Positions 49,396-64,000 of a stretch of 64,000 nucleotides of DNA are shown in pieces. The translations under genes were made by a program, and so were the position numbers. The stretch comes from an uncultured delta proteobacterium (lineage in GTDB: Bacteria > Desulfobacterota > Desulfobacteria > Desulfobacterales > B30-G6), in contig CAWGLD010000005.1 in assembly GCA_963823335.1 (NCBI GenBank), forward strand, positions 128,001-192,000, given 5' to 3'. Position 1 is the first letter of the stretch, and each line of letters opens with the position of its first letter. The notes beneath the pieces were generated by a model. It had not been told where the DNA came from and did no database searches. It saw only the letters and a list, made by a program, of their open reading frames with translations.

Positions 49396-51765
49396 ATGAC
49401 AGCTAGTATGATCCTGGTCCTATGCATTTTAGCGACAGCGGTTGTTTTTCTGGTTTCGGAATGGCTGCCCATGGAGGTGGTGGCACTGCTTGTCCTGGGA
49501 AGCGTGGCGATAACCGGCCTGGTCGATCCGATAAGTGCTTTGGCCGGGTTCAGCAATCCTGCCGTGATTACGGTAGGCGCTGTATTCATTCTGAGCAGTG
49601 GGCTTACCAAGACAGGTGTTGCCAACTGGGTCGGCAAGATAGTGTTGAAACTGTCCGGCAAGAGTGAAGCATCTATTATCGGCGTGATTATGGTTAGCGC
49701 CGGCGTCATGTCCGCTTTTATGAATAACGTGGCCGTGGCGGCGCTGATGCTTCCGGTCATTATGGATATCTCCCGTCAAACCAACAATGCGCCATCCCGC
49801 TTGATGATGCCTCTGGCATATGGTTCGCTATTGGGGGGGCTGACCACTAAAATTGGTACACCGCCCAATCTCTTGGTGAGCGGTGTGTTGAGCGAAAACA
49901 ACCTTGAAGGGTTTGCATTGTTCGATTTTACACCGGTGGGTATTGTGGTCATGGGTTCAGGCGTCCTGTTTATGGTCCTGATAGGCCGTCATCTTCTGCC
50001 CCGTCGAAATATCTCGGAAATGGATCGCAGGGAGAGAGCCCTCGATTATGAAGCACAATACAAGCTCAAAGATCGAATTTATCAACTGAAGATCCCCCTT
50101 GGCTCTCAGCTGGCCGGAAAATCCATTGCCGAAACCCGGATGGGAACACTGCTGGGTTTCACGATTATCAGCATCACCCGGAATGATAAGACCCTGTTGT
50201 CGCCCTCACCATCCGAAACTCTTTCAATATCCGACATATTGACCGTTGAAGGTGGAAAGAAACAGATGCAAATCCTGGAGATGCTGGTTCGAAACTGGAA
50301 TACATTGAGTTTTCAGGTGACGGGAGATTTGTCTCAGTGGCTTTTCTCCAAAAAAACCAGGATGGCGGAAATACGATTGAAGCCGGAAACGGAACTGACG
50401 GCAACCACACTCAAGAAGGCACAGTTTCGTAATCGATTTCAGGTTGTGGTGATGGCCATCAAACGAAAGGATGAAATTTTTCGCACCCGGCTTCAGAATG
50501 TTGTGTTGCAGGCGGGAGATCTCCTCTTTGTTCAGGGAAGCCAGGCGAACATTGAGTCATTGAGCCATCAGCCCATGTTTGAGGAATTCCGATACAGTGA
50601 GCCGGATAGCATCTTGGACATGGTTCGTTCGGATAAAAACCTCATGGTGGTGGGTATTTCCAAAGATTCGGTTCTGCATGAACAGACCCTTGCTGAGAGT
50701 AGGCTCGGGGCTGCTCTCGGTATTCGTGTACTATCCATCAAACGTGGCGAGACTATCTTTAATTTACCCGACTCTGAGCATCAGCTGTTGTCCGGCGACG
50801 TTGTTCTGCTGGAGGGCAGTCCGGATGAATTGGATATTCTCAAACAGCTTTCCGAGCTTGAGGTTCTCCCATATGAAGCGTCGAATCTTGACTGGCTGGA
50901 AACGGAAGATGTCGGTATGGTCGAAGCGATCTTGCATCCTCACTCAACTCTGGCAGGAAAAACCCTGGGCGAGCTTCGGTTTCGTGAAAAATACGGCCTG
51001 AATGTCTTGTCCATATGGCGGGGAGGCAAGGCTTATCGATCTGAAAACTTAGGCGAAATGGCGATCCAGATTGGTGACGCGTTGCTGTTATATGGAAAGC
51101 GGGCAAAATTCAATCTTCTTGGGAGTGAACCGGACTTTATGGTACTGACGGAATCCGCTCAGGAAATTCCGGATTTTAAAAAAGCCAAATTGTCATTGGG
51201 TATCATGCTGGGAGTGCTTTTCCCGGTCTTGATGGGCTGGGTTCCCATTTATATTTCGGCATTATTCGGTGCGGCATTTATGGTGATTACCGGTTGTCTG
51301 ACCACGGAGGAAGCCCACCAGTCCATAGAATGGAAAGGTATTATTCTCATCGCGGGCATGCTGCCGCTGGGGTCGGCCCTTGATGCCACCGGGGCAGCCG
51401 CTTTTCTGGCCGACGGGGTCGTGACCCTGGTGGGACCTTTCGGGCCTGTGGCCGTGATGGGCGGGTTGATGGCGCTTACATTTCTTGCAACCTGCGTTAT
51501 TCCCACGGCCGCTTTGGTGGTTTTGCTGGGACCGATTGTACTGAATACGGCTGCAACCATGGGAATTTCACCCTATGCACTCATGATGGCCATTGCCATG
51601 GCAGCATCCTCAAGCTTTATGACCCCGATTTCCCACCCGGCCAATATTATGGTCATGGGGCCGGGCGGATACAGGTTCAGCGATTATTTAAAGGTTGGCG
51701 TACCCTTGACAATCACCGTTTTTGTCGTGCTGATGCTCGTTCTGCCACTCTTGTGGCCTTTTTAA
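49396..51765 (+). CDS. SLC13/CitMHS-type anion permease with multiple TrkA-C (RCK-C) domains
   Basis: SAFMNN, GTPPNL, four repeated LAG.T/S..E.R segments, FMTPISHPANIMVMGPGGYRFSDY. Confidence 0.88.
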   Translation: MTASMILVLCILATAVVFLVSEWLPMEVVALLVLGSVAITGLVDPISALAGFSNPAVITVGAVFILSSGLTKTGVANWVGKIVLKLSGKSEASIIGVIMVSAGVMSAFMNNVAVAALMLPVIMDISRQTNNAPSRLMMPLAYGSLLGGLTTKIGTPPNLLVSGVLSENNLEGFALFDFTPVGIVVMGSGVLFMVLIGRHLLPRRNISEMDRRERALDYEAQYKLKDRIYQLKIPLGSQLAGKSIAETRMGTLLGFTIISITRNDKTLLSPSPSETLSISDILTVEGGKKQMQILEMLVRNWNTLSFQVTGDLSQWLFSKKTRMAEIRLKPETELTATTLKKAQFRNRFQVVVMAIKRKDEIFRTRLQNVVLQAGDLLFVQGSQANIESLSHQPMFEEFRYSEPDSILDMVRSDKNLMVVGISKDSVLHEQTLAESRLGAALGIRVLSIKRGETIFNLPDSEHQLLSGDVVLLEGSPDELDILKQLSELEVLPYEASNLDWLETEDVGMVEAILHPHSTLAGKTLGELRFREKYGLNVLSIWRGGKAYRSENLGEMAIQIGDALLLYGKRAKFNLLGSEPDFMVLTESAQEIPDFKKAKLSLGIMLGVLFPVLMGWVPIYISALFGAAFMVITGCLTTEEAHQSIEWKGIILIAGMLPLGSALDATGAAAFLADGVVTLVGPFGPVAVMGGLMALTFLATCVIPTAALVVLLGPIVLNTAATMGISPYALMMAIAMAASSSFMTPISHPANIMVMGPGGYRFSDYLKVGVPLTITVFVVLMLVLPLLWPF

Positions 51766-51803: not shown

Positions 51804-53522
51804 TTACTTAAAAAGACTCAGGAAATTAATGATTTTAATTGTGCCACCCTCCTTGTCCACGTCTTTAACCAGTGCAACGGCCGGGTTCCGAAACCCGGTA
51901 ACCACCTCTTTCCACACAATCGAATCGACCGTGAGAGAAATGTCCGGGTTGTCTGGAAATTTAGGCTGAATTTCTGCAACACCGTGGCGCACGTGCACGG
52001 TAAAGGCTTCTCCGGTATCGGGAAATCGAAAGCCGGCGATCATGTCCACGTCGGCGCTTTTATCAGGATTGAGGCTCACCGCCATACCCTCGAATAGACC
52101 TTCTAAAGTGATCCTGGAAAGTATTTTCCTGTCTTTGAGTTTCATCGTACCGATGTAAAGTTTGTTTTCTATTTCAAGAGCCTGGGTCAAATAGTAATTC
52201 CTGGCAGTCGATGCGATCTGCCGGTTGCCCAGGGATCTCAACGCCACAGCCTTGAGCTGGCGAACCTCTTCGGATTCCGGACTGATCCGCAGTAACTGAT
52301 CGGAAAGTTCCAGGGCCCACTGGTAATCCTTTTCGGCCACAGCCTGCCGGGTATGTGCCAGCAGATTTTGCTCACTTCCCGCCAGGGAAATGAATCGTCT
52401 GGCCTTCTCATCCGGGGACAGGGGAAAAAGATCGGTAGCGTTTCCGCCGAACCATCCGAGGTAACCGTCAAAAATAGCCCGTACCGACCACGACACCGTT
52501 CCATAATACTCCTTCAGATAGGGTTGTCGCACCAAGTGGGGAGGCAAGGTCACCTGTTGCGCAATTTCCAGGGGAGCCAGGCCCTGGTTTATCAGGCGTA
52601 TGGTCTGGTCGTGGACAAACTGGATGGCATCCCGATAATTGGTGAGGGTTTCGTGTACCGTGTCTGCGCCTGTGAGCGGTCTGGTATGATGCGGAACCAG
52701 ATACGCGGCTTTCAGTTCACGCATTGTATCCAGGCTTTTCACCCACTGGGTCACATCCCGGTAGGCGGTCCCGCGGATGGCATAAAGATTTGGAAAGGAT
52801 TTGTAGAAATTGTCGGCCGGCAGGAGTACCTTTTTTTGCGGCAGCCAGATAAAAATCTGGTCAGGCGTTTCTCCCGGGGCATGAACCAGAACCATCTCGA
52901 TGCCGGCGATCTCAAGTTCAAGGGGGGTCGAACCAAAAGTACGGGTGGGCGTTAATATCGCAAGGGTACTGTCCTCGTTAAACCGGAGTTCCGGCCCGAT
53001 ACCGCAATTTACAAGCCCGCCTTCAGGCAGCAGGGTTCCGAATTGGCGCATGGCCCGGCGATAGGTTGTATCCCGGGTGATATTCGCAATGCGATTCAAA
53101 TAATGTCCGGTGCTTTCATGGGAATACACTTCCGGGTCGTCATTACCGGCCATGACAGCGGCGCCACCTGTATGATCCGAATGAAAGTGCGTGTAGATGA
53201 TGCCCTTGACCGGCTTGGTGGAAATTTTGTCAAAAGCCTCTTTGACCGGAAGGGCAGCTTCAGCGCTTTCCATGGTGTCCACGATAACGACACCGTCATC
53301 GCCAACCAGCAGGACAGCGTTGGCGAGCCCGAACCCAACAGCCACATAAACACCGTCGGTAACTTCGATCACGTCTTGGGTGAATTCCGCTGAATGGGCG
53401 GCAAGATCCGGGTGGCTCTCGACCGCGGAATGCTCAGGGGGCTGAGATTGCGAGCAGGCCGCCACGACGATAAGCGCCATCATGCTGCAAAGCAGATGTG
53501 TCCAGGATTTTATTTTTCTCAT
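51804..53522 (-). CDS. Alkyl/aryl-sulfatase (SdsA1/BDS1-type metallo-beta-lactamase fold), probable lipoprotein
   Basis: THFHSDH, APGET, PNLYAIRG, EYYGTV, GWFGGN, RNYYL, SCP2-like C-terminus; lipobox-like VAAC. Confidence 0.88.
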   Translation of the reverse strand: MRKIKSWTHLLCSMMALIVVAACSQSQPPEHSAVESHPDLAAHSAEFTQDVIEVTDGVYVAVGFGLANAVLLVGDDGVVIVDTMESAEAALPVKEAFDKISTKPVKGIIYTHFHSDHTGGAAVMAGNDDPEVYSHESTGHYLNRIANITRDTTYRRAMRQFGTLLPEGGLVNCGIGPELRFNEDSTLAILTPTRTFGSTPLELEIAGIEMVLVHAPGETPDQIFIWLPQKKVLLPADNFYKSFPNLYAIRGTAYRDVTQWVKSLDTMRELKAAYLVPHHTRPLTGADTVHETLTNYRDAIQFVHDQTIRLINQGLAPLEIAQQVTLPPHLVRQPYLKEYYGTVSWSVRAIFDGYLGWFGGNATDLFPLSPDEKARRFISLAGSEQNLLAHTRQAVAEKDYQWALELSDQLLRISPESEEVRQLKAVALRSLGNRQIASTARNYYLTQALEIENKLYIGTMKLKDRKILSRITLEGLFEGMAVSLNPDKSADVDMIAGFRFPDTGEAFTVHVRHGVAEIQPKFPDNPDISLTVDSIVWKEVVTGFRNPAVALVKDVDKEGGTIKIINFLSLFK

Positions 53523-53571
53523 ATGGCAAAAAAAAGGTGATAAAATTAACTATACCCTACCATCTGGCCTG

Positions 53572-54390
53572 TCAATACAGGCCCTCTACTTCACGGCGGA
53601 AGAAAACAGCGATGACAATCACCGTAATGGTCGGGAATAAAATGATCAAAACCGCTGCAGCATTTACTGCCGGCGTGAAGGTAAAGCGCATGAGGCTGTA
53701 AAGGTACACGGGCAGTGTCAATTCGTGTCCGATCAGGAAGAAAGACAGCAAAAATTCCCCCATGGAGATCGTAAAACAAAAGAGCGCAGCGGCCAGGACG
53801 GAGGGAATTATCAACGGCAACGTGATGTCCAGAAAGGTTCGCAGCCGGGTTGCGCCAAGATCCATGGCAGCTTCTTCCATTTCGAGATCGAAGTTGAGCA
53901 ACCTGTCACGAATAACCATGACAGCAAAGGGCATAATAAAGGTCGTGTGACCTAAAATAGTGGGCCAGATTCCACCCGGGATACCCAGAAAGCGAAACCA
54001 GAGCAGGACCGAGATAGCCGAAACAACCCCGTAGGTGATAATTGCCAGGATGTTGAGAGTCTCGATCAATGATTTGCCTTTGAACTTGAATCTGACCAGG
54101 CCATAGGCCAGCCCGCCTCCGATGAGAGTCGAGAAAAAGGTTGCTACCAGCCCGATGAAGACCGAATTTTTAAGGGCTAGTATTAGTCTGGAATCATCAA
54201 AGGCTTTCTGGAACCAATGGAAGGTCAAGCCCTTCAGGGGCCAGGTCAGATATTCCGACGCGTTGAAAGCATAGAGCACCAGTACTGCCAACGGTAAAAA
54301 AATATAACAAAGGAACAGAATGAAATAAATCTGGAAAGCCTTGTCGCCCCAGTCCTTTACCAGCCAATCAGGCCAACGGGAGTCAGGCAT
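53572..54390 (-). CDS. Pot-type ABC permease (PotC-like)
   Basis: EEAAMDLGAT, TLPVYLYS, PAVNA. Confidence 0.9.
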   Translation of the reverse strand: MPDSRWPDWLVKDWGDKAFQIYFILFLCYIFLPLAVLVLYAFNASEYLTWPLKGLTFHWFQKAFDDSRLILALKNSVFIGLVATFFSTLIGGGLAYGLVRFKFKGKSLIETLNILAIITYGVVSAISVLLWFRFLGIPGGIWPTILGHTTFIMPFAVMVIRDRLLNFDLEMEEAAMDLGATRLRTFLDITLPLIIPSVLAAALFCFTISMGEFLLSFFLIGHELTLPVYLYSLMRFTFTPAVNAAAVLIILFPTITVIVIAVFFRREVEGLY

Positions 54391-55282
54391 ATTCGGCCTC
54401 CTTTCCCAGGCGGACAATTACGGCCGCCAGCATCAACAGGGCCAGAAAGACAACCACCGAAAGCGCACTGCCGGTGGTCCAGTTTGCGCCGCCCATGAAT
54501 GTTTCAAAGATCACCGAGGATATCATCAGCGTATTGGCGCCGCCTAACAACTGCGATGATAACACGTCCCCGAAGCTGGCCAGCAGTACCAGAACAACTC
54601 CGGACACGGTTCCGGAGCTGGTCAGCGGAATCGTTATCCTGATCAATGTTTGCAATTTATTGGCGCCAAGATCCTCGGAGGCCTCCAATAATTTATTGGG
54701 CACCTTGCCCAAACTGGCATAAAGCGGAAGGACCATATAAGGGGTATAGGTGTAGACCAGACCGAAGACAATGCCGGTTCCCGAATATAAAAACCGGATA
54801 GGAGTGTCGAAAAGGCCTAAGGACATCAGCGCCCAATTGAGAATCCCGCTTGAACCCAGAATAATCTTCCAGGCAAAGACGCGCAGAATCACACTGGTCC
54901 AAAATGGGATCAGGAGGGCCAGCAATAGCAAGCTGCCACGCCTGGTTATACGCGACAGATAATAGGCCACCGGATAGGAAATCAGCAGAGAGATGATCGT
55001 TGCCGTGGCGGCATAGCCGGCGGTTCGCATAAAGGCATTGCGATAAATCGGCTCGACGAGGACACGCAGATAGTTGTCAAACGTATAGTGGGGATGGGGA
55101 TCGAAGAAGGGCATGCTGGACAACAGACTGTACCGCAGGGCCACAAACATCGGAATCAGAAAGAAGAGGATCAACAGGATGGCAGCCGGACATATGGTGA
55201 GAATGGGAACGGTCAGTTCATCGAGTCGATCCCGCCACGGCAATGCCCGGTATGTGTTTGTTTGGACTGCGGATTCCTGCAT
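54383..55282 (-). CDS. Pot-type ABC permease (PotB-like)
   Basis: IPFWTSVILRVFAW, PYMVLPLY, LEASEDLGA. Confidence 0.9.
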   Translation of the reverse strand: MQESAVQTNTYRALPWRDRLDELTVPILTICPAAILLILFFLIPMFVALRYSLLSSMPFFDPHPHYTFDNYLRVLVEPIYRNAFMRTAGYAATATIISLLISYPVAYYLSRITRRGSLLLLALLIPFWTSVILRVFAWKIILGSSGILNWALMSLGLFDTPIRFLYSGTGIVFGLVYTYTPYMVLPLYASLGKVPNKLLEASEDLGANKLQTLIRITIPLTSSGTVSGVVLVLLASFGDVLSSQLLGGANTLMISSVIFETFMGGANWTTGSALSVVVFLALLMLAAVIVRLGKEAEYA

Positions 55283-55302
55283 TTGTCGACTCCCTGATTC
55301 CC

Positions 55303-55352
55303 GGAAGCAAGATGCGGTTTCTGATTATCTGAAACACACATCTTGCTTTCCA
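55303..55352 (-). other. Intercistronic stem-loop after the SBP gene
   Basis: GGAAGCAAGATG..GTTTC...GAAAC...CATCTTGCTTTCC. Confidence 0.65.
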
Positions 55353-55365
55353 GTATTGTAGCTCT

Positions 55366-56442
55366 TTATTTACCACGCACGTCCTGGTAGGCCCTCACCA
55401 TTTTTTCGGATGTTTCCGGTTTCAGGGTGGGGTACGGTACCAACCGTTTTGTTTCCTCATCGGAGTAGGTCATAATATCGGCCATTTCCTTTGGCAAGGC
55501 ACTGGCGGCTTCTGCATTGACTACCATATAGCCCATCTTCTTGATCATCTGGGAGGCAACTTTCGGAGATAGCATGTGATTGATCCATTTGTTGGCCGCA
55601 TCCTTGTGGGGGGCATCGGACATGATGCAGAATTGGTCGATCCAGGCCGCGGCCCCTTCTTTAGGAAGCACGAATTTCACCGGTTGCCCGTCGAGCTGCA
55701 TCTTGTGGACCATGCCGTCATCTGCCGACGTGAGCCATATTTCACCCGAAGCCAGGAGATTTTTCATTTCTTCAAGGCTTTCGATGCGCTTCAGCAACAG
55801 GGGATTTTGCTCGGCCAGCTTCTTCTTGATGGGGATCAGTTTGGCGTCGGTGTCGACATCGAGCTGGGTGATATCCATACCGAGATATTTGCCAACGGCA
55901 AAACAGGCATCCACGGGGTTCCGGGAAAAAGCGATACGGCCCTTATAACGCTCATCCCAGAGGGCACCCCAGGAAGTAGGCGCTTCCTTGACCAGGTCGG
56001 AACGATAGGCAATTCCCATGATCCCAAAAGTGTAAGGCACACTGTATTGCTTGCCATCGACCGTATTGTAATCCGCCTTTTTGAAACCTTCCGACAAGCC
56101 TTCATAGTTGGGAATCTTGCTCTTTTCAATGGGCGACAAGAGGCCGGCCTTGGCAAATCGTTGGATCATATGGTTACTGGGCTGAATGATATCGAGGCCC
56201 TTGTGCCCGGCCTGAATCTTGGACCACAGTTCCTCGTTGCCGTGATAGAATGTGCAATTTACCTTGATGCCATACTCTTCTTCGAAGGATTGGGTCGCAA
56301 AATCAGGGCAGTAGATACCCCAGGTCCAGATGTTGAGCTCTGTATCTTCAGCGGCCAACACTCCCTGCAATGGGAATAGTAGACCTAAGAGGAACAAAAA
56401 TACCGCCAACCTGACTGCGATTGAACATTTTGGGTGTTTCAT
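55366..56442 (-). CDS. PotD/PotF-family substrate-binding protein
   Basis: Signal peptide, LNIWTWGIY, DIIQPS, VPYTFG, PKEGAAAWID; RBS AAGGAG before ATG 56442. Confidence 0.9.
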   Translation of the reverse strand: MKHPKCSIAVRLAVFLFLLGLLFPLQGVLAAEDTELNIWTWGIYCPDFATQSFEEEYGIKVNCTFYHGNEELWSKIQAGHKGLDIIQPSNHMIQRFAKAGLLSPIEKSKIPNYEGLSEGFKKADYNTVDGKQYSVPYTFGIMGIAYRSDLVKEAPTSWGALWDERYKGRIAFSRNPVDACFAVGKYLGMDITQLDVDTDAKLIPIKKKLAEQNPLLLKRIESLEEMKNLLASGEIWLTSADDGMVHKMQLDGQPVKFVLPKEGAAAWIDQFCIMSDAPHKDAANKWINHMLSPKVASQMIKKMGYMVVNAEAASALPKEMADIMTYSDEETKRLVPYPTLKPETSEKMVRAYQDVRGK

Positions 56443-56612
56443 GATAGTCTCCTTCTCTTTGTAATGCTGCATAGGTCCTTGCCGGATTTTGATTTTTTCA
56501 GTCAGTCAAATTTTCTCTGTCCACCCCCTTTCAATTCGGATGTAAGGGTATTACCCACCGTCACTGTTTTTTCACAGATGGAAACCTTCGCCTGCAATAA
56601 GCGAAAGCCGGC

Positions 56613-57722
56613 TTACGTGTTTTCTGAACCCGTTATCTTTACGGCCAGCAGCGCTGCGTCTTTGGCAAACCAACCAATCCGTGTCTTGTCTCCAATCCGG
56701 AAATCAGCGGTAGATTTTGCATCCAAATCCGCTTTAAACTGGACCTTGTTGGGCAACTCGACGATGCAGCGTCGCATGGGTCCGGAATAGATCAAGTTAA
56801 TGATATGGGCCGGGTGTTGGGTGTCGCACCTGTCGGCACTTTCACCGAGCACGATCCTTTCCGGGCGGATACAGAGTGTGACCATCTCACCCACGTCAAA
56901 GCGGTCCGCTTTCTTGGCATGGAACACCAAACCGTCGGCTTCGATTTTGGAAGCGCTTTCTTCGTATCTATAAACCTTGCCGTCCAAAAAATTCGTGTCA
57001 CCGATGAAATCGGCGATAAACCGGGTTCGCGGGCGTTCATAGATCTCCTCGGCGGTGCCGATCTGTTCGATTTTGCCCTGGTTCATGATGGCGATCCGAT
57101 CGCACATATTGAGGGCTTCTTGTTGATCGTGGGTCACGTAGACAAACGTGGTGCCCAAGCGGCGCTGGATGTTTTTGATTTCGATCTGCATTTCCCGGCG
57201 TAGTTTAAGGTCAAGGGAACCCAGAGGTTCGTCAAATAAAACCACGCTGGGCTCAAGAATCAGGGCCCGGGCAAGGGCGACCCGTTGCTGTTGGCCACCA
57301 CTGAGTTGTTTCGGATACCGCTCCCCAAAGCCCTCTAAATGAACGACCTCCAGGGCATCAGCTACCCTGGCTCTGATCTCTTTGGCAGCTACTTTTCGGA
57401 TTTTTAAACCATAGGCCAAATTGGAGAAGACTGACATGTGAGGAAACAGTGCCAGATGCTGGAAAACCATCGTGGTGTTGCGACGATAAGCGGGCCGACG
57501 CCCCATCAGCTCATTCTGGAGATAGACCTCCCCTATATCAGGAATGATAAATCCCCCGATAATACGCATGGTAGTGGTTTTACCGGAACCGCTGGGGCCT
57601 AAAATACCAAAAAATTCACCCTTTTGAATGGCAAGAGAAACATCATGAAGCACCTGGTTGGGTCCGAAATAGTGCGAGATGTTGTGCAGCACACAATCGT
57701 ATGGGGTCTCATTTATCGCCAC
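56613..57722 (-). CDS. Pot-type ABC ATP-binding protein (PotA-like)
   Basis: [28 protein letters not shown]; likely GTG start at 57722 after AGGAAGG. Confidence 0.9.
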
Positions 57723-57784
57723 ATGCTTTTCCTTCCTCACATAACTGATCCAAAAAAAAGTTTTCAGCAAGAGGTGTATGTTTA

Positions 57785-57960
57785 TTGACGACAGTGTGTG
57801 TGTATATCGGAAACACAGTAACGGAATAAACACTAAAATGTCAAGCAAAATAATTCCTCATTCTTGCCCTTTCCGGAAGCCAGGAAAATGATATTTTTTT
57901 GCTTGACATTTTTGCAAAAATCTCTGTATGAATGTTTCCTATCCGAATACAAAGCGTCAA
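57785..57960. promoter_or_regulatory. Mirror-image divergent sigma70-type promoters, each with a TGTTTCC operator-like motif
   Basis: Plus strand: GCTTGACATTTT..TATGAA-TGTTTCCTATCCGAATACA. Minus strand: GCTTGACATTTT..TACTG-TGTTTCCGATATACACA. Both have an 18-nt spacer. Confidence 0.6.
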
Positions 57961-58021
57961 CGATAAGCATACGATATTTTCTAACCCGACCTTGTACCCT
58001 AACGCGCCATGTGGAGGTTAT

Positions 58022-59887
58022 ATGAATACTGAAAAAATATTTGGAAGTCATGGCCGGCTGCTCAGAATTGACCTCACCCACCAGGTTGTTCAAACAGAAC
58101 AATTGCCCTTAAATGATTTGCGCCTTTATTTGGGCGGAAGAGGGCTGGGTGCTGCAATCATGCTCAGAGAACTTCCGGCCGGAATCGACCCCCTTGGCGA
58201 AGAGAACCTCCTCATTTTTTCTACGGGTCCTCTGGTAGACTCACCTGTTCCTGGGAGCAACCGGTATGTTTTGCACACGAAATCCCCCCAAACGGGTCTC
58301 TATTCCTTTTCCGTGTCAGGCGGCCGTTTTGGTGACATGCTGAAAAAAACGGGTAACGACGTGATCATCATCAAGGGAAAAGCCTCCAGGCCGGTTTATC
58401 TCTTTGTGAAAGATGATGGCCGGGTTGAATTCAAAGACGCGTCACACCTGTGGGGTAAGGATACCGAAAAGACCCAGGAAAGCATCTTGTCGGAAACCGA
58501 CCCGGATGCCAGGGTTACCTGTATCGGTCCCGCCGGGGAGAATCTTGTGCCCTATGCTTGTCTTATCAATGAGCGACGGGCACTGGGGCGTGGTGGTGCA
58601 GGTGCTGTCATGGGATCTAAAAATCTGAAAGCCGTGGCCGTGTTGGGCCGGACCAGTGTTACTTTGGCCGATTCCGAAACCATGAAAACGGCCATAAAAA
58701 ACGGCTATCAGGAGCTTAAACAGAATCCTATGACGGCGAAAATTCTGAAGACCTACGGCAGTTCGAATATGCTCCGGGGCCTGATGAACCACGGTGCGCT
58801 GCCCGGAAATAACTGGGCAGAGGCTGCTCTTGACGAAGCCGAGTCGATTACCGCCGAACAGATGCGGGAGCATTTCCATGTCAAGGATCTGGCCTGTTCG
58901 GCCGGATGCCCGGTCAAGTGCTCGAAGATGTTCGCGGTAAAAGAAGGGGACTATCGCGGTGCGCAAAGCGAGGGTCCTGATTACGAAACCGTTTATGCCT
59001 TTGGGTCCTGTTGCGGTGTTTACGACCTGGCGCCCATCATTAGGGCGGATGAACTTTGCGATCTGTTAGGTCTCGATACAATCAGTACCGGCGTAAGTAT
59101 TGCCTTTGCAATGGAATGCCTGGAAAAAGGCATCATCGATGCCGGTGATGCCGATGCGGGCGATCTGGCATTTGGAAATGCCAAGGCCATGCTCAAGCTT
59201 GTTGAAGATGTGGCTTACAAAAGAGGCTTTGGCGTGGTGGTGGCAGAAGGAACCCGTGCTATGGCAGGCCGTTTTGGACGTGATTCACACAAATTTGCCA
59301 TGCATGCCAAGGGCATGGAGCTGGGGGGCTACGATCCGAGGGGTATGAAAGGGATGGGGCTCGTTTATGCCTGCGGCCCGAGGGGCGGGTGCCACCATGC
59401 CGGCGGCTATACAGCCATTGCTGAAATGATGAACCCCCAGATAGACCGATTTTCAGAAAAGGGTAAGGCCCCACTTGTGGCCGGAACCCGAAACAGACGT
59501 GCTTCTCTTTGCGACTCAGGTCTCATCTGTGCTTTCGTGGCCATCGGGCTCAGCGATGAAACCGTAATCGGTATGCTAAACAGCGCCACCGGGTTCAATT
59601 ACCAGCCAAGTGATCTGCACACCATTGGAGACAGAATCAGCCAGATCGAAAGGGCTTTTAACTGCCGGGAAGGGCTGACACGTGGTGATGACGTGCTCCC
59701 TGAACGGTTGTTGTCAGAAAGTGTCACCCGCGGACCCAGTCAGGGAGGGAAAATGGAGGATTTTGAGGCCATGAAAGACGAGTTCTACACGCTGTGTGGC
59801 TGGGACCTCACTTCAGGTGCTCCTCTGGAAGAAAGACTAGAAGCACTGGATATCGGCTGGGTGAAAGACATTCTCAAAACAAAATAA
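58022..59887 (+). CDS. aor: Aldehyde:ferredoxin oxidoreductase (W/Mo-pterin AOR family)
   Basis: GGRGLG, KSPQTG, IGPAGE, GRGGAGAVMGSKNLKA, CSAGCPVKC, EGPDYET, GLDTIS, YDPRG, RGGCH. Confidence 0.92.
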   Translation: MNTEKIFGSHGRLLRIDLTHQVVQTEQLPLNDLRLYLGGRGLGAAIMLRELPAGIDPLGEENLLIFSTGPLVDSPVPGSNRYVLHTKSPQTGLYSFSVSGGRFGDMLKKTGNDVIIIKGKASRPVYLFVKDDGRVEFKDASHLWGKDTEKTQESILSETDPDARVTCIGPAGENLVPYACLINERRALGRGGAGAVMGSKNLKAVAVLGRTSVTLADSETMKTAIKNGYQELKQNPMTAKILKTYGSSNMLRGLMNHGALPGNNWAEAALDEAESITAEQMREHFHVKDLACSAGCPVKCSKMFAVKEGDYRGAQSEGPDYETVYAFGSCCGVYDLAPIIRADELCDLLGLDTISTGVSIAFAMECLEKGIIDAGDADAGDLAFGNAKAMLKLVEDVAYKRGFGVVVAEGTRAMAGRFGRDSHKFAMHAKGMELGGYDPRGMKGMGLVYACGPRGGCHHAGGYTAIAEMMNPQIDRFSEKGKAPLVAGTRNRRASLCDSGLICAFVAIGLSDETVIGMLNSATGFNYQPSDLHTIGDRISQIERAFNCREGLTRGDDVLPERLLSESVTRGPSQGGKMEDFEAMKDEFYTLCGWDLTSGAPLEERLEALDIGWVKDILKTK

Positions 59888-59972
59888 TTCTGTGGGCATC
59901 CTAAAAGTGTGAGCGATTGCTTGTGTGCTTTTTTCGACGGCATAAACCAACCTGCGATGAAAGGAGGTAGAT

Positions 59973-60185
59973 GTGACTACGTTCGTCAAGAAAAATCGAC
60001 AATGGTGGATTACGTGGTTAATTGTCTGGATCGTCATGTATCTGCTGGCAATTCTGATATATCCGGACGCCCCCTCGATTTGGTTTGGATGGCTGCCAAG
60101 TTCGGTGGTAACCACTTTCGGGTTGATGGTCGCTTCCCTGATCTTTGGATATCTATTTGCCAAACAGCGGTTCAGCCAGAAATAG
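59973..60185 (+). CDS. Small two-TM membrane protein, probable accessory partner of the Na+/solute symporter
   Basis: Two hydrophobic helices with FGWLP between them; GTG start after AAGGAGG; position upstream of an SSS gene. Confidence 0.7.
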   Translation: MTTFVKKNRQWWITWLIVWIVMYLLAILIYPDAPSIWFGWLPSSVVTTFGLMVASLIFGYLFAKQRFSQK

Positions 60186-60198
60186 TCCTGGTGTCAGT

Positions 60199-60274
60199 GT
60201 AAACCGCAACAGCGAGCGCATTCCCCATAGGTTCTGCCGTTCGGCAGTGCTTCGCATGCTGCGAGGTTCTTCAA
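60199..60274. repeat. REP/MITE-like element, family A (intermediate form)
   Basis: AAACCGCAACAGCGAGCGCATTCCCCATAGGTTCTGCCGTTCGGCAGTGCTTCGCATGCTGCGAGGTTCTTCAA is nearly identical to the first part of 18749-18873. Confidence 0.88.
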
Positions 60275-60327
60275 AACCGTATCTGATCTGGAAATATAAT
60301 TTTCCAGACGCTGGAAAGGAGGCCAAA

Positions 60328-61815
60328 TTGATTCTGAAAGTCATCCCTATCTTAATAATCGTTGCTTACATGGTGGTCTGTCTTGTGGTCGGTTATACTG
60401 TTTTCCGTTCTAAAGCCAAAATGAAATCCGGAGATTATTTTATCGGAGATCGAACCAGCGGTTCTTTTGTGGGACCCATGTCCTACATATCCACGGTATT
60501 CAGCGCTCTTGTCTTCATGGGTGCCGTAGGTATTTATTTTGCCCTCGGTATTGGTTTCAATATCTTTCTTATCAGTGAAATGTTTCTCCTGGCTGTGTTT
60601 GTCCCCACGGTGGGATATCTCTTCTGGCGGCTGGCCCACCAACACCAATACGTAACACCAGCGGACCTGATGACCCATCGCTACGGAAACGGACGGACTG
60701 TCCGGATCATCGTGGGCTTGAACACCGTCGGTTTTATGATATTCTTCATGGCCACCCAAATCGTCGGCATTTCTTACATCATGGAAACCATTACCGGCGG
60801 GCTGATGAGCTATGGTGCCTCGGTTATCCTTATTTCGGTCGTTCTGGCCTTTTATATCGTTTTGGGTGGATTCCGTGCCATAGAGTACACCGACACCTTC
60901 CAGGTGATTATTCTCATGACCTGTGTCGTGGGTACCTTTTTATTTTTAAGCACGAGTATTGACTGGACGGCTGCTTTCGTCCAGGCGCAACAGATCCGTC
61001 CGGCACTTTTCAAGGCTCCGGGCCCGATACCCATCTACACGACCAAGCTTTATATGTCTCAACTCTTTGTCATCGGTCTCGGGTTTGCACTGATGCCGCA
61101 ACTCTGGGTACGGATATACGCCGTCAAGAACGAAAAAGGCCTGCAGAATATCGTGACCTATTTTATCGGGAGCACGATCATCCTGTTCATTATTTCGTTT
61201 TTCCTGGCTGTGGCTGCTGCGCCAATTATTGGCAAACTGTTCGCCGAAGGAGAAAAACTTGTCCCGGCCAAAATTGTCATGAAGCTCATGTTCAGCAACA
61301 TGCCTTCCTGGCTGGCAGCTACGCTGCTTACCGGAGCTATCGCGGCGACCATGTCAACCGTGGACTCGGCGGTGCTGGCCCTCAGTTCCATCCTGACCAT
61401 CGATCTTTACCGCAAGCCGTTCAATCCCGAAATGAACCCGGCAAAAGAGGCCACTGTCGGGCGGATTGTCAGTGTATTGCTGATAGCCATCATGGCAGTT
61501 CTGGCCTTTTATCCACCGCAGTTGCTATTCAATTCGCTCATAGACATGGCCTATCCCGGATTGGTAACCCTTGCACCGGCTGCCATCTTGGGTATGTTCT
61601 GGAAAAAAGCCGGAACCGCTGCCGCGATCTCCAGTATTGTGTCGGGCTCTGTCCTGGCCGTGTATCTGATTTTTCATAAAAACCCAATGGGGCTCTACTC
61701 AGGTTTCTGGACCCTGCTGCTCAGTTTGGCGGTCTTCGGGGCAGTGACGTTTCTTATGCCATCAAAAGACGCAAGCTTTTTCAGGGATGTCGAGCGTGTC
61801 AGTGTTCATGAGTAA
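60328..61815 (+). CDS. Sodium:solute symporter (SSS family)
   Basis: DYFIGDR, GGFRAIEYTDTFQ, AATMSTVDS, many TM helices; TTG start after AAGGAGG. Confidence 0.9.
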   Translation: MILKVIPILIIVAYMVVCLVVGYTVFRSKAKMKSGDYFIGDRTSGSFVGPMSYISTVFSALVFMGAVGIYFALGIGFNIFLISEMFLLAVFVPTVGYLFWRLAHQHQYVTPADLMTHRYGNGRTVRIIVGLNTVGFMIFFMATQIVGISYIMETITGGLMSYGASVILISVVLAFYIVLGGFRAIEYTDTFQVIILMTCVVGTFLFLSTSIDWTAAFVQAQQIRPALFKAPGPIPIYTTKLYMSQLFVIGLGFALMPQLWVRIYAVKNEKGLQNIVTYFIGSTIILFIISFFLAVAAAPIIGKLFAEGEKLVPAKIVMKLMFSNMPSWLAATLLTGAIAATMSTVDSAVLALSSILTIDLYRKPFNPEMNPAKEATVGRIVSVLLIAIMAVLAFYPPQLLFNSLIDMAYPGLVTLAPAAILGMFWKKAGTAAAISSIVSGSVLAVYLIFHKNPMGLYSGFWTLLLSLAVFGAVTFLMPSKDASFFRDVERVSVHE

Positions 61816-61856
61816 GATGACCTGTTTCACCACACATGGGTCTGGAGAGAAGCATT

Positions 61857-62468
61857 ATGATGGTTGAAGAGTATGTTAGTAAAATCGCCCAGCGGATAAA
61901 AAACCGCCGGATCGAACTGGGTCTTTCTATTCGGGAAGCAGCGAGGTTAACTGACACGTCTCCCTCGACGATCCAGAAAATCGAATCGAACGAGATGGTC
62001 CCATCCATAGCGATTCTAATGAAGATTGCCCGTGGTCTCAATCAAAAGGTCACCTCTTTTTTTGAGAACGCGTCCGAACCCCGGAAAGTAGTGTTGGTGC
62101 GCCATGATGAGCGAAGGTCGACGACAATCCCCGCCTCCGGTCTCAAGGTTGAGGACTTGGGCTCATCGATAGAAGACGCTCGGCTGGAAGCATCGATCCT
62201 GACCATAGAAAAAGGGGGCAGCAGTGGGAAGGATCCCCTCATCCACGAGGGAGAGGAAATCAAGTTCTGTATGAAAGGCAAAATCGGTTACACAATCAGT
62301 GATGAAGAGTATGTGCTCGAAGCTGGAGACTGTATCCATTTTAAATCAGGAAACCCTCACTACTGGAAGAACGAAGATGCCGGAACCACGCGGGTTTTCT
62401 CTGTTGTGTTCAACGGTCCCTATTCCCAGCCGGCAAGAACAAAAAATGGGCGGGTAAAAAAAAGATAG
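61857..62468 (+). CDS. XRE-family HTH plus cupin transcriptional regulator (PuuR/SutR-like)
   Basis: RIKNRRIELGLS..SPSTIQKIES..PSI; HEGEE; GDCIHFKSGNPH. Confidence 0.9.
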   Translation: MMVEEYVSKIAQRIKNRRIELGLSIREAARLTDTSPSTIQKIESNEMVPSIAILMKIARGLNQKVTSFFENASEPRKVVLVRHDERRSTTIPASGLKVEDLGSSIEDARLEASILTIEKGGSSGKDPLIHEGEEIKFCMKGKIGYTISDEEYVLEAGDCIHFKSGNPHYWKNEDAGTTRVFSVVFNGPYSQPARTKNGRVKKR

Positions 62469-62554
62469 TCACAACCGGAAAACACTGCAGGACAATTAAA
62501 AAATCTGAACAAATTCATTGGTATGTGAAACAAAGCCGAAAAGGAGGAAAACCC

Positions 62555-63718
62555 ATGAGAGAACATGCCCTTTTTAATATGAGCTCCGGACCTGTCCAGG
62601 GAAGTGCCCGGACACTCCGGGCGCTATCCCAGCAAATTCTTTACCATCACGATCCTGAGTTTGCTGAGATATTTGATGCCTGCACCGAAAAACTGCAACG
62701 GTTTTTCAAGACATCAGGAGATGTCATTATCATGCAGGGTGAGGCACTCCTGGGCTTGGAAGCTGCGGCGTTCTGTACGATCGAACCCGGTGACAAATGT
62801 CTCAATTTAGTGTCCGGGATATACGGTCATCTATATGCCTGGTACATAGAGGCCTTCGGCGGCCAGATAGTTGAAGTGAGGACCGATTACAACAAGGCTA
62901 TCGATCCGGCCGAGGTGGAGAAGGCTTTTGCTGAGAACCCGGACATCAAGATCATGGCGGTTGTACACAGTGAGACACCTTCGGGAACTGTCAACCCCAT
63001 CGAGGACCTCTGCCCCATCGCTAAGAAATACGGCGCAATAACTATCGTCGATGCAGTTTCTTCCATTGGTGGGACAGAAGTGAATGTAGACGACTGGGGG
63101 ATCGACATCTGTTGTATCGGCCCGCAGAAGTGCCTGGCGTCGTCCCCGGGACTTGCACCAGTGGCTGTGAGTGAAGATGCCTGGGAAAAGATGCGCACTA
63201 AATCCAAGCCAGTGAGGTACTCCTACATGAGCATGCTCGATTTTAAAGAGCAATGGCTGTGTGAGAAAGAAAAGCGCAGTTTTCCGTATACCATGTTTAC
63301 CAATGAAGTCGTGGCCCTTGACGAAACCCTGGATCAGGTGTTTGAGGAAGGTCTGGAAAATATGATCGCTCGACACAAAACGGCGGCCAGAATGGCGCGT
63401 GCCGGGGTTAAGGGGATGGGACTTTCACTCTGGGCAGACACGGAAGACATCTGCGGGCCCTGCGCCACGGCGGTCAGAGCGCCGGACGGTGTCGACGAAG
63501 TCAAATTGCGGCGGCATCTTTATGATAAATATCGGATAACCATTTCCGGTGGATTCCGCGAACTTAAAGGAAAACTTTTCCGACTGGGCCATATGGGGCC
63601 GACGGCCAACCCTGCCTATGTCGCCATGCAGTTGGCAATGGTGGAAAAATCACTCCACGATATGGGCTACCCGGTTAAACTCGGCAGCGGTGTTGGGGCG
63701 GCTCTGGAAGCGATTTAA
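62555..63718 (+). CDS. Class V aminotransferase, pyridoxamine-pyruvate transaminase-like
   Basis: SGPV, YHHDP, QGEALLGLEAAA, ETPSGTVNP, DAVSS, GPQKCL, TAVRAPDGVDE, RLGHMGPTA. Glu replaces the usual Ser/Thr of the phosphate-binding loop. Confidence 0.8.
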   Translation: MREHALFNMSSGPVQGSARTLRALSQQILYHHDPEFAEIFDACTEKLQRFFKTSGDVIIMQGEALLGLEAAAFCTIEPGDKCLNLVSGIYGHLYAWYIEAFGGQIVEVRTDYNKAIDPAEVEKAFAENPDIKIMAVVHSETPSGTVNPIEDLCPIAKKYGAITIVDAVSSIGGTEVNVDDWGIDICCIGPQKCLASSPGLAPVAVSEDAWEKMRTKSKPVRYSYMSMLDFKEQWLCEKEKRSFPYTMFTNEVVALDETLDQVFEEGLENMIARHKTAARMARAGVKGMGLSLWADTEDICGPCATAVRAPDGVDEVKLRRHLYDKYRITISGGFRELKGKLFRLGHMGPTANPAYVAMQLAMVEKSLHDMGYPVKLGSGVGAALEAI

Positions 63719-63746
63719 TTTAAACAGGATGCAAGGGAGGCAAAAA

Positions 63747-64000
63747 ATGCTGAATTTTGCAAACGAGAAATGCGTTAACTGTCGACTCTGTGAGGAGGTC
63801 TGCTCTTTCAGACTTACCAATGCGGTTTATCCCGGTGTTGCGGCTATTCGCATCGGTCGGGAGGAAGGCAGGTGGGGGACACCCTATGCCATGGTTTGTA
63901 ATCTGTGTGAGGGTTTGGAAGAACAGAAATGCATAACGGCATGTCCGGAAGATGCGCTCAACCTTGGTAACGGGGTGATCGTTTGGGATGATGAAAAATG
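63747..64000 (+). CDS. 4Fe-4S dicluster (ferredoxin-like) protein; runs off the window edge
   Basis: Manual translation MLNFANEKCVNCRLCEEVCS...VCNLCEGLEEQKCITACPEDAL...; RBS GGGAGG. Confidence 0.85.
   Translation, partial: MLNFANEKCVNCRLCEEVCSFRLTNAVYPGVAAIRIGREEGRWGTPYAMVCNLCEGLEEQKCITACPEDALNLGNGVIVWDDEK

Follow-up and report, generated by a model that had tools for sequence, protein, structure and literature searches.

To our knowledge, the catabolism of vitamin B6 is known only as two aerobic pathways, to which oxidases and a monooxygenase that opens the ring are essential. Pathway I of Mesorhizobium loti and Pseudomonas MA-1 comprises pyridoxamine-pyruvate transaminase (PPAT), pyridoxal dehydrogenase, lactonase, 4-pyridoxate dehydrogenase, FHMPC dehydrogenase, HMPDC decarboxylase, MHPC oxygenase and AAMS hydrolase; its 4-pyridoxate dehydrogenase is a GMC protein, its pyridoxal dehydrogenase an SDR protein, its lactonase a small metallo-β-lactamase-fold (MBL) protein and its decarboxylase is of the aldolase type. 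The nicotinate fermentation of Eubacterium barkeri relies on a Mo/Se nicotinate dehydrogenase, a ferredoxin-dependent 6-hydroxynicotinate reductase and an enamidase. Here a locus is described at the right end of a 64,000-nucleotide window (the whole stretch of DNA that was analysed; G000:C5:128001-192000, G000 being the source genome) from a sediment bacterium of deltaproteobacterial type that is dsrA-positive (dsrA scored above cut-off in the genome). The region is probably the left third of a vitamin B6 catabolic cluster of about 28 kb and of anaerobic type, with predicted substrates, which reaches from 53.6 kb of the window to about 79.8 kb (extrapolated).

Coordinates past 64000 are given as extrapolated window positions. 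The window genes were taken from a listing of open reading frames (ORFs) and from Pfam scans, and both divergent arms and every gene named in an earlier note on this window were found. The right edge of the feature reported there is a window artefact, since the cluster continues past 64000: the operon runs for about 11 kb more on the same strand and is followed by a linked transporter operon, about 15 kb in all. The earlier note had read the locus as an oxygen-independent entry into B6 catabolism, a reading that each computational check proposed in that note supported, with substrate and activities predicted. The genes on which the argument depends are the following.

53572-57848, minus strand: PotABCD-type ABC importer, whole (Pfam), candidate pyridoxamine importer
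57932-59887 (ORF; likely start 58022), plus strand: AOR1, a tungsten-type aldehyde:ferredoxin oxidoreductase (AOR) with AFOR_N and AFOR_C domains
59973-60185, plus strand: small two-helix membrane protein of 70 aa, with a ribosome-binding site and two hydrophobic stretches, partner of the symporter
60328-61815 (likely), plus strand: SSS sodium:solute symporter, PanF-like (Pfam SSF)
61836-62468, plus strand: XRE-HTH and cupin regulator, PuuR-like (Pfam HTH_3, Cupin_2)
62525/62555-63718 (ORF), plus strand: PPAT-type class V transaminase of 387 aa (Pfam Aminotran_5)
63747-64145, plus strand: polyferredoxin of 132 aa with four Cys clusters (4x[4Fe-4S]), cut by the window end at 64000
64170-65982 (extrapolated), plus strand: AOR2, a second tungsten-type AOR (Pfam AFOR_N and AFOR_C), split by a frameshift
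66014-67204 (extrapolated), plus strand: PreA-like protein, a PreA/dihydroorotate-dehydrogenase-like FMN protein with a C-terminal ferredoxin domain
67260-68714 (extrapolated), plus strand: UbiD decarboxylase (domain scan)
68690-69679 (extrapolated), plus strand: homologue of FHMPC dehydrogenase (FHMPC-DH), of the 3-hydroxyacyl-CoA-dehydrogenase family
69688-70722 (extrapolated), plus strand: NicX-fold (M29-like) protein
70739-71101 (extrapolated), plus strand: small cupin
71175-74799 (extrapolated), plus strand: XDH-type Mo enzyme with FAD, FeS and Mo subunits
75161-79842 (extrapolated), plus strand: BMP-B6 (BMP/PnrA-type) ABC importer, after a 360-bp gap following the XDH genes

The aminotransferase is a relative of PPAT, with the activity predicted from sequence. 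Its start is likely 62555, because the homologues are 387 aa long. In phmmer searches of the PDB its best solved match was 2z9u with 312 bits (the file label is aspartate aminotransferase; we take it to be M. loti PPAT), followed by PucG with 175 and AGT enzymes with about 150, and among the NCBIfam models NF046070 (pyridoxamine--pyruvate transaminase, EC 2.6.1.30) reached 396 bits, BhcA 214 and PhnW 173, as expected from the PPAT-like label that the enzyme had already received in the earlier note. The five PPAT motifs named there all align with 2z9u by phmmer, GEPVLGLEAAA pairing with GEALLGLEAAA, TPSGTINP with TPSGTVNP, GPNKCL with GPQKCL, TAVRTPDGVDE with TAVRAPDGVDE and RIGHMGPTA with RLGHMGPTA. 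The catalytic Schiff-base Lys, the ring-N Asp, Thr and Glu are identical to the aligned 2z9u residues, which are presumably Lys197, Asp171, Thr146 and Glu68 of M. loti PPAT (these numbers agree with the alignment), and the C-terminal Arg is kept. Where AGT-type enzymes have a phosphate-binding Ser/Thr the transaminase has Glu, in a QGE motif. Conservation in the 84 rows of the PPAT clade is at least 95% for each of Q and E in this motif, K in GPQKCL and D in IVDAVSS, and two AGT-type outgroups have GSGT or GTGS at the QGE position. The QGE motif in place of the phosphate-binding site fits an enzyme that would bind free B6 as a substrate, and a passage of one report has it that PM-ATs function without pyridoxal 5'-phosphate (PLP; PMC9309667). 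In a class V tree of 88 rows (L054 was dropped for an in-frame stop, and M. loti PPAT was not among the rows) the transaminase fell, in line with its earlier assignment, into one clade with the RefSeq-annotated PPAT of Rhizobium daejeonense, which nests among the homologues; three of the four AGT-type outgroups lie outside this clade (SH-aLRT 100), and the fourth, L092, is a long branch in a basal polytomy. Many of 120 homologues among the matches listed are already named pyridoxamine-pyruvate transaminase by JGI.

The transaminase gene is linked to the AOR2 unit in genomes as well as in metagenomes. Of 80 loci retained from a metagenome scan with AOR2, nine have orthologues at 59% identity or more, and the other 71 stand at 41% or less. 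The gene for the Fe-S protein stands directly 5' of AOR2 in all nine of the former and the PPAT gene directly before the Fe-S gene in eight; in the ninth, L101, the Fd-AOR2 pair (Fd, the Fe-S or ferredoxin gene) is flanked by XDH genes on one side and by orthologues of the Pot-type importer on the other. None of the 71 loci with other AORs gave a match to PPAT, PreA-like protein, UbiD, FHMPC-DH, M29-like protein, BMP substrate-binding protein (SBP) or XDH large subunit. Among genome loci the order PPAT-Fd-AOR2 was found in four, namely the source genome, L002, L007 and L063 (in the last three the Fe-S gene is likewise immediately 5' of AOR2), and linkage of PPAT with an AOR occurs in metagenome-assembled genomes (MAGs) of Thermodesulfobacteriota/SAR324 type, in a Thermoleophilia MAG and in a Peptococcaceae MAG. 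The co-occurrence that the earlier note had suggested surveying is thus found in the four genome loci and in eight of the nine metagenome loci. Not all of these loci are independent of the source genome, since L105 is identical to it and the PPAT of L100 and L102 shares 97% identity with its own. Conservation of the triad of PPAT, Fe-S protein and AOR2 means that AOR2, not AOR1, is most tightly tied to the transaminase; the proposal that an AOR oxidises pyridoxal therefore keeps its link between AOR and transaminase, and the candidate partner becomes, as far as sequence can tell, AOR2 (64170-65982) instead of AOR1. An AOR gene hard-wired in this way to a transaminase gene implies one dedicated aromatic aldehyde and not broad detoxification. 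As a separate observation, contigs from the RNA library of run X14 match stretches of PPAT, Fd and AOR2 with 90-99% likeness; they were not used as evidence, because such contigs are no proof of transcription.

The Fe-S protein matched 6x1o_B (66 bits), 8c0z_C (60) and 9mqx_E (59) over its full length in the PDB, and these partner subunits of tungsten AORs argue that it is an AOR subunit, predicted to be the AorA/WOR5-β-type electron-transfer subunit of AOR2, and not the free ferredoxin that had earlier been proposed as electron acceptor. AOR2, with the intact copy of L007 as query, matched 1aor with 438 bits, and AOR1 matched 9mqx with 441 bits, 1aor with 408, 8c0z with 352, FOR with 310, WOR5 with 251 and BamB with 195; by such scores both are closest to AOR proper, rather than to FOR, WOR5 or BamB. 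The locus is thus like the tungsten AOR complexes (Aromatoleum AorAB(C), 8c0z; WOR5, 6x1o; 9mqx) in its AORs, at 350-440 bits, and in an Fe-S partner matched at full length; it differs from Aromatoleum AorABC in that the cluster showed no AorC-like FAD subunit. Where the gene order differs from that of the source genome, AOR1 pairs with genes of alcohol-oxidising enzymes: its orthologue in genome G327 (60%) adjoins the FHMPC-DH homologue, and that in L063 (49%) adjoins Fe-ADH, with a small MBL protein also beside it. Since AOR2 belongs to the triad and AOR1 stands beside alcohol-oxidising enzymes, pyridoxal oxidation may be assigned to AOR2 and oxidation of the second aldehyde to AOR1, a division of labour that we infer from gene neighbourhood. 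Conservation of both AORs across phyla fits a substrate that needs two aldehyde oxidations.

Two further proteins point to B6, both encoded beyond 64000. The FHMPC-DH homologue scored 328 bits with NF042925 (next NCBIfam model, 268) and in the PDB matched 4om8 with 262 bits and 3-hydroxybutyryl-CoA dehydrogenase with 216. The BMP SBP has a single NCBIfam match, NF047927 ('putative B6 ABC transporter substrate-binding protein'; 331 bits), and is 49% identical to the BMP SBP beside the RefSeq-annotated PPAT on the R. daejeonense plasmid. PPAT, FHMPC-DH and BMP SBP are unrelated, yet each is best on B6-specific families, and the cluster therefore points to B6. The genes past 64000, at which the earlier note had suggested looking, thus bring an FHMPC-DH homologue, a 'B6' BMP-type SBP and enzyme types that work without O2 and could replace aerobic steps. 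UbiD matched best, with 230 bits, the PDB entries 6h6x/6h6v, presumably the furandicarboxylate decarboxylase HmfF (a name absent from the entry title), and the genome has one UbiX gene, for the UbiD cofactor. The alpha subunit of the XDH-type enzyme scored 631 bits with the 4-hydroxybenzoyl-CoA-reductase model against 588, and its FAD subunit 223 bits with XdhB against 100 with the reductase beta subunit, the latter in two pieces; a dehydroxylase of the 4-hydroxybenzoyl-CoA-reductase type was rejected on the FAD subunit scores. The M20 amidohydrolase gene that follows (extrapolated 79928-81274, minus strand) was rejected as a pathway member, as a homologue lies near PPAT in none of 80 loci (the survey is described below).

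The following route may be proposed, in which we infer the substrates, the direction of flux and the assignment of each AOR to a step. Pyridoxamine would be taken up by the Pot-type ABC system, while the SSS symporter and the BMP-'B6' ABC system would import other vitamers or 4-pyridoxate. The PPAT-type transaminase would convert pyridoxamine and pyruvate into pyridoxal and alanine, and AOR2 with its four-cluster Fe-S subunit would oxidise pyridoxal directly to 4-pyridoxate, replacing the aerobic pair of NAD-dehydrogenase and lactonase. The FHMPC-DH homologue would then oxidise the 5'-hydroxymethyl group of 4-pyridoxate, a reaction that the M. loti enzyme runs in reverse, as a dismutase, and AOR1 would convert the resulting aldehyde (FHMPC) into 3-hydroxy-2-methylpyridine-4,5-dicarboxylate and possibly act on pyridoxal too. 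UbiD would remove one carboxyl group in place of the aerobic aldolase-type decarboxylase. Finally, the XDH-type Mo enzyme would hydroxylate the ring with water, the PreA-like FMN/Fe-S protein would reduce it with electrons from the AOR steps, and the NicX-fold metalloprotein would open it together with the cupin, so that these four would jointly replace the O2-dependent MHPC oxygenase.

Set against pathway I, the locus shares an entry enzyme of the PPAT clade, an FHMPC-DH homologue within the cluster and the presumed chemistry of two side-chain oxidations, decarboxylation and ring opening; with the annotated rhizobial PPAT cluster it shares a BMP-type 'B6' importer. The remaining enzymes of pathway I are missing from it: Pfam scans of the 26 cluster proteins gave no flavin monooxygenase, GMC oxidase (or other GMC/FAD dehydrogenase) or SDR domain, nor was a small MBL lactonase, an aldolase-type decarboxylase or an alpha/beta AAMS hydrolase found among these proteins, to which that search was confined within the genome. 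Instead the cluster has two AORs and the polyferredoxin, UbiD, the XDH-type Mo enzyme, the PreA-like protein and the NicX-fold protein. In its hydroxylation with water by an XDH-family enzyme, its low-potential reduction and its hydrolytic opening of the pyridine ring the predicted route resembles, in strategy, nicotinate fermentation in E. barkeri as that pathway is described; unlike there, the reductase is of the PreA/dihydroorotate-dehydrogenase family, and the candidate ring opener has a NicX/M29 fold, whereas the E. barkeri enamidase is of amidohydrolase type.

How widely such genes travel together was seen in a transaminase scan of contigs from one genome per species, which gave 575 relatives. 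The best 80 loci were examined by tblastn with the 26 cluster proteins, and a gene was counted as a neighbour if it lay no more than 10 kb from PPAT; as half of the loci do not extend over the full flank, all counts are minima. The BMP SBP was found near PPAT in 45 loci, the FHMPC-DH homologue in 24, the XDH large subunit in 16 (just 30-35% identical), the pair of M29-like (NicX-fold) protein and cupin in nine, AOR in four, the Fe-S protein in three, and the PreA-like protein and UbiD in two each. Most PPAT carriers belong to Chloroflexota, Thermomicrobia, Actinomycetota and Acidobacteriota. These counts indicate that a B6 core of PPAT, BMP importer and FHMPC-DH is widespread and that the AOR-type version is a rare variant. 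One of the loci, L082, lies on the R. daejeonense plasmid (NZ_CP048425.1, 118797-149936) and holds an annotated PPAT, a BMP ABC importer and a NicX-annotated dioxygenase, with a GMC oxidoreductase, a lactonase-type MBL protein, SDRs and amidases; its gene set differs from that of M. loti pathway I, and it possibly represents a third aerobic variant.

Within the rare variant, gene content and synteny are conserved. The whole cluster is syntenic in L007, L100, L102 and L104, and L007, a MAG labelled SAR324, has it entire and in identical gene order. The Thermoleophilia MAG of L063 holds the BMP importer, PPAT, Fd, UbiD (41%), the PreA-like protein (63%), the AOR1 orthologue mentioned above, an AOR2 orthologue (49% and 63% on its two halves) and a third AOR. 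The PreA-like protein is conserved at 63-85% with the AOR-type clusters. In the Peptococcaceae MAG (L077:7665-17777) two ECF S-components, two PPAT paralogues, EcfA, EcfA' and EcfT are followed by an AOR, which makes up a minimal unit of vitamin transporter, transaminase and AOR in a Firmicute.

Parts of the cluster also occur separately. A search of 401 genomes, the source genome included, for the PreA-like protein found a sole other match, in G327, from another family of the same phylum. Its cluster (L096, G327:C33:1-20000) holds AOR1, FHMPC-DH, a Liv-type ABC system, an XRE-cupin gene (46% identical to that of the window), the PreA-like protein, UbiD, the M29-like protein, a cupin, XDH and TctBAC; a search of this genome gave no PPAT orthologue, the best match being 33% identical. 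The cluster of G327 may be a degrader of 4-pyridoxate or of another pyridine carboxylate. Genome G401 (locus L003) carries PPAT with the Pot-type importer divergent beside it, at 83-94% identity, and a search of this genome gave no match to the PreA-like protein and no AOR2 orthologue (best AOR 36% identical); the importer is accordingly tied to the transaminase, and its orthologues, at 67-76% identity, adjoin Fd-AOR2 in the metagenome contig L101. The source cluster would seem to consist of three modules, that is, an importer-transaminase pair, an attached Fd-AOR2 unit, and a lower module that perhaps starts from 4-pyridoxate. On the 3' side of the stand-alone PPAT in G401 (L003:11981-16242) lie genes for YqeC, two MobA/MocA-like nucleotidyltransferases and a MoCF-biosynthesis protein, accessory types typical of the maturation of XDH-family molybdoenzymes.

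Several observations weigh against a B6 pathway free of oxygen. The scores with the B6 families lie below the curated cut-offs in each case, at 396 against 600 bits for the transaminase, 328 against 500 for FHMPC-DH and 331 against 400 for the BMP SBP. The non-rhizobial members of the PPAT clade that were tested all score 363-453 with NF046070 and the R. daejeonense PPAT scores 645, above the cut-off; the FHMPC-DH homologues beside PPAT in other phyla score 379-412, also below it. In the anaerobe lineage the match to FHMPC-DH leads those to ordinary 3-hydroxyacyl-CoA dehydrogenases by a modest margin (328 against 268; 315 against 283 in G327). At the position of M. loti Arg336, presumably the second carboxylate-binding Arg, the transaminase has Phe, with an Arg one residue later (SGGFRE vs SSGRAE), and most members of the PPAT clade have Gly. 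AOR2 is frameshifted in the source assembly by one extra base (L001:3290, extrapolated window 65290) which divides the gene into two ORFs; this base is absent from L002 and L007 and from contigs of all three public runs covering the site (a fourth run gave no cover there), and most likely reflects an error in the assembly or variation between strains. In aerobe lineages the XDH genes beside PPAT share just 30-35% identity and are at best putative orthologues, and the occurrence of the lower module without PPAT in G327 means that it need not be bound to pyridoxamine. Lastly, the best fold match of the NicX-fold protein is an O2-dependent dioxygenase (NicX, TM 0.74), and the two heme-copper oxidase (COX1 family) genes of the genome (window 13485-14714, minus strand, and G000:C1:327787-329034) mean that ring cleavage could need O2.

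The last two points bear on how far the absence of oxygen extends. It is suggested only tentatively that sulfate-reducing sediment bacteria, with relatives in Thermoleophilia/Peptococcaceae, carry out a complete and strictly O2-independent mineralisation of B6, in which the NicX-fold protein would be a hydrolase, the two tungsten AORs would stand in for four aerobic enzymes and UbiD would depend on prenylated FMN. The NicX-fold protein had no PDB sequence match at E up to 0.01, and therefore it was folded (model pLDDT 83.8) and compared by Foldseek. The top matches were 7cn3 and 7cup, both NicX, with E from 1e-20 to 4e-19, TM 0.72-0.75 and equal length, the M29 aminopeptidases ranking after them. 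It is like NicX of Pseudomonas putida (2,5-dihydroxypyridine 5,6-dioxygenase) in fold, size and the context of a pyridine-ring pathway, and unlike it in sequence, being just 17-19% identical. Invariant residues of its subfamily include E205, E275, H299, H319 and D321; in the alignment with a rhizobial NicX-like protein (24% identity), E275, at the first ligand position, stands opposite His, and H299, an additional invariant His, opposite Leu; the H319-x-D321 motif is invariant in the subfamily. This residue comparison is with the rhizobial protein. The metal ligands of NicX are presumably His, His and Asp, and E275 and H299 resemble the Glu/His metal site of M29 peptidases. The metal site is possibly more peptidase-like than NicX-like, and the protein may be a hydrolase.

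The alternative is a B6 cluster in which only the upper part is independent of O2: the AORs and UbiD would yield a hydroxypyridine carboxylate, the Mo enzyme a 2,5-dihydroxypyridine-type ring, and the NicX-fold protein would cleave it with O2 under microoxic conditions. It gains from the NicX matches at the same length (7cn3, 7cup) and from the two COX1-family genes, as well as from the NicX-annotated gene in the aerobic rhizobial PPAT cluster and from the NicX-fold and cupin pair (48-53% identity) in PPAT clusters of Gaiellales/Thermoleophilia-type MAGs. We nevertheless consider it unlikely, as E275 and H299 resemble the metal site of M29 peptidases where the rhizobial protein has His and Leu, the PreA-like reductase, conserved at 63-85%, would be left without a role, and AORs are normally oxygen-labile. 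No oxygenase-type Pfam domain occurs among the cluster proteins.

A quite improbable alternative concerns the substrate, which would be another N-heteroaromatic compound or furan with aminomethyl or hydroxymethyl groups, for example a thiamine-derived aminomethyl-pyrimidine or a compound like hydroxymethylfurfural or furandicarboxylate, processed by the same logic from amine to aldehyde to acid, with UbiD decarboxylation, Mo hydroxylation and ring reduction. The similarity of UbiD to 6h6x/6h6v (presumably HmfF), the membership of PreA in a family of pyrimidine-ring reductases, the position of every B6-family score below its cut-off and the G327 module without PPAT would all be accommodated by it. 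Yet it leaves aside that three unrelated proteins are each best on B6-specific models and that the PPAT, FHMPC-DH and BMP SBP families co-occur in many aerobic lineages, and the cluster has no CoA ligase, which the furoate route requires. Salvage, in which the Pot-type importer and the transaminase would supply pyridoxal for PLP and the AORs perhaps run in reverse from 4-pyridoxate to pyridoxal with low-potential ferredoxin, is highly improbable: the stand-alone importer-transaminase pair of G401, with neither PreA-like protein nor AOR2 orthologue, and the general reversibility of AORs agree with it, but UbiD, Mo hydroxylase, ring reductase and hydrolase-type genes of the source operon would be roleless in salvage, and the operon order is kept in L007, L100, L102 and L104.

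If B6 catabolism of this anaerobic type is real, an anoxic route would explain the turnover of B6 and of its main excretion product, 4-pyridoxate, in sediments and guts, habitats in which vitamins are traded between auxotrophs. Both bacterial tungsten AORs would gain physiological substrates, as would UbiD, the PreA-like reductase and the NicX-fold protein, and there would be a second example, after nicotinate fermentation, of a pyridine ring dismantled without O2. A full-text literature search, outside which most subscription journals lay, turned up neither an anaerobic pathway of B6 breakdown nor an AOR with pyridoxal as substrate. According to a passage of a 2026 paper on anaerobic riboflavin degradation (PMC13492142), the breakdown of vitamins by anaerobes has received little study.

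The remaining features of the window belong to the minus arm and the control region.

51804-53522, minus strand: MBL-fold protein of 572 aa (Pfam Lactamase_B, Alkyl_sulf_dimr, Alkyl_sulf_C), last gene of the minus arm
53572-54417, minus strand: second permease of the Pot-type importer (Pfam)
54383-55282, minus strand: permease of the Pot-type importer (Pfam)
55366-56472, minus strand: PotD/PotF-type SBP (Pfam)
56613-57848, minus strand: ABC ATPase (Pfam)
57835-57854 / 57893-57912, no strand: divergent control region with a 20-nt inverted repeat, TTGACA in each arm

The minus arm holds the PotABCD-type importer and the MBL protein, as had been noted, and nothing ties the MBL gene to the system. 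Its product, which has the architecture of alkyl-sulfatases, is the only MBL protein among the 26 cluster proteins scanned. The SBP scored 126 bits with PotD and 111 with PotF in NCBIfam, both far below the cut-offs. Beside the Pot-type operon L003 carries a HAD hydrolase where the source genome has the MBL gene, in L101 permC abuts AOR2 with no MBL gene between, and four Acidobacteriota loci gave matches to the MBL domain of just 22-24%. The MBL gene was rejected as a system member, as it is not conserved with the Pot-type operon (L003, L101), and its membership is doubtful. Convergent with it, at 49396-51765 on the plus strand, lies the gene of a 789-aa CitMHS/DASS-type anion transporter with four TrkA-C domains, for which no link to the cluster was seen. 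The control region measures 170 bp and the arms of its inverted repeat are 95% complementary; the 16-mer TTTTGCTTGACATTTT has exactly two copies in the window, one per strand, both inside this region. It was not found upstream of other operons, and L001 gave only a match with three mismatches. The repeat may represent paired -35 boxes or an operator. At E up to 1, Rfam had no match in 57000-64000, hence no known riboswitch.

In the plus arm, the likely start of AOR1 at 58022 is preceded by GGAGG. All the genes named earlier for this arm are present, with one correction: the small partner of the symporter is the 70-aa ORF at 59973-60185, which has no Pfam family match and shows codon-wise conservation with wobble-type changes in five related loci (L002, L100, L102, L104, L007). 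The 97-aa ORF at 59909-60202 was rejected for this role, as its product is not hydrophobic and is conserved less than its neighbours, the true gene lying in another frame. The symporter, whose best NCBIfam match is PanF (163 bits against a cut-off of 328), is syntenic in L002, L007, L100, L102, L104 and L105 and could be a second importer, taking up a B6 vitamer or 4-pyridoxate. The XRE-cupin regulator scored 70 bits with PuuR in NCBIfam, below the cut-off, and its gene stands immediately 5' of PPAT in L002, L007, L099, L100, L102, L104 and L105. The genome, of 4.37 Mb, harbours a dispersed REP-like element containing GCGAGCGCATTCCCC in 94 exact copies, of which two lie in intergenic gaps of the cluster, one at extrapolated 74809 and the other at window 60212, inside about 75 nt that are absent from the aligned stretches of relatives.

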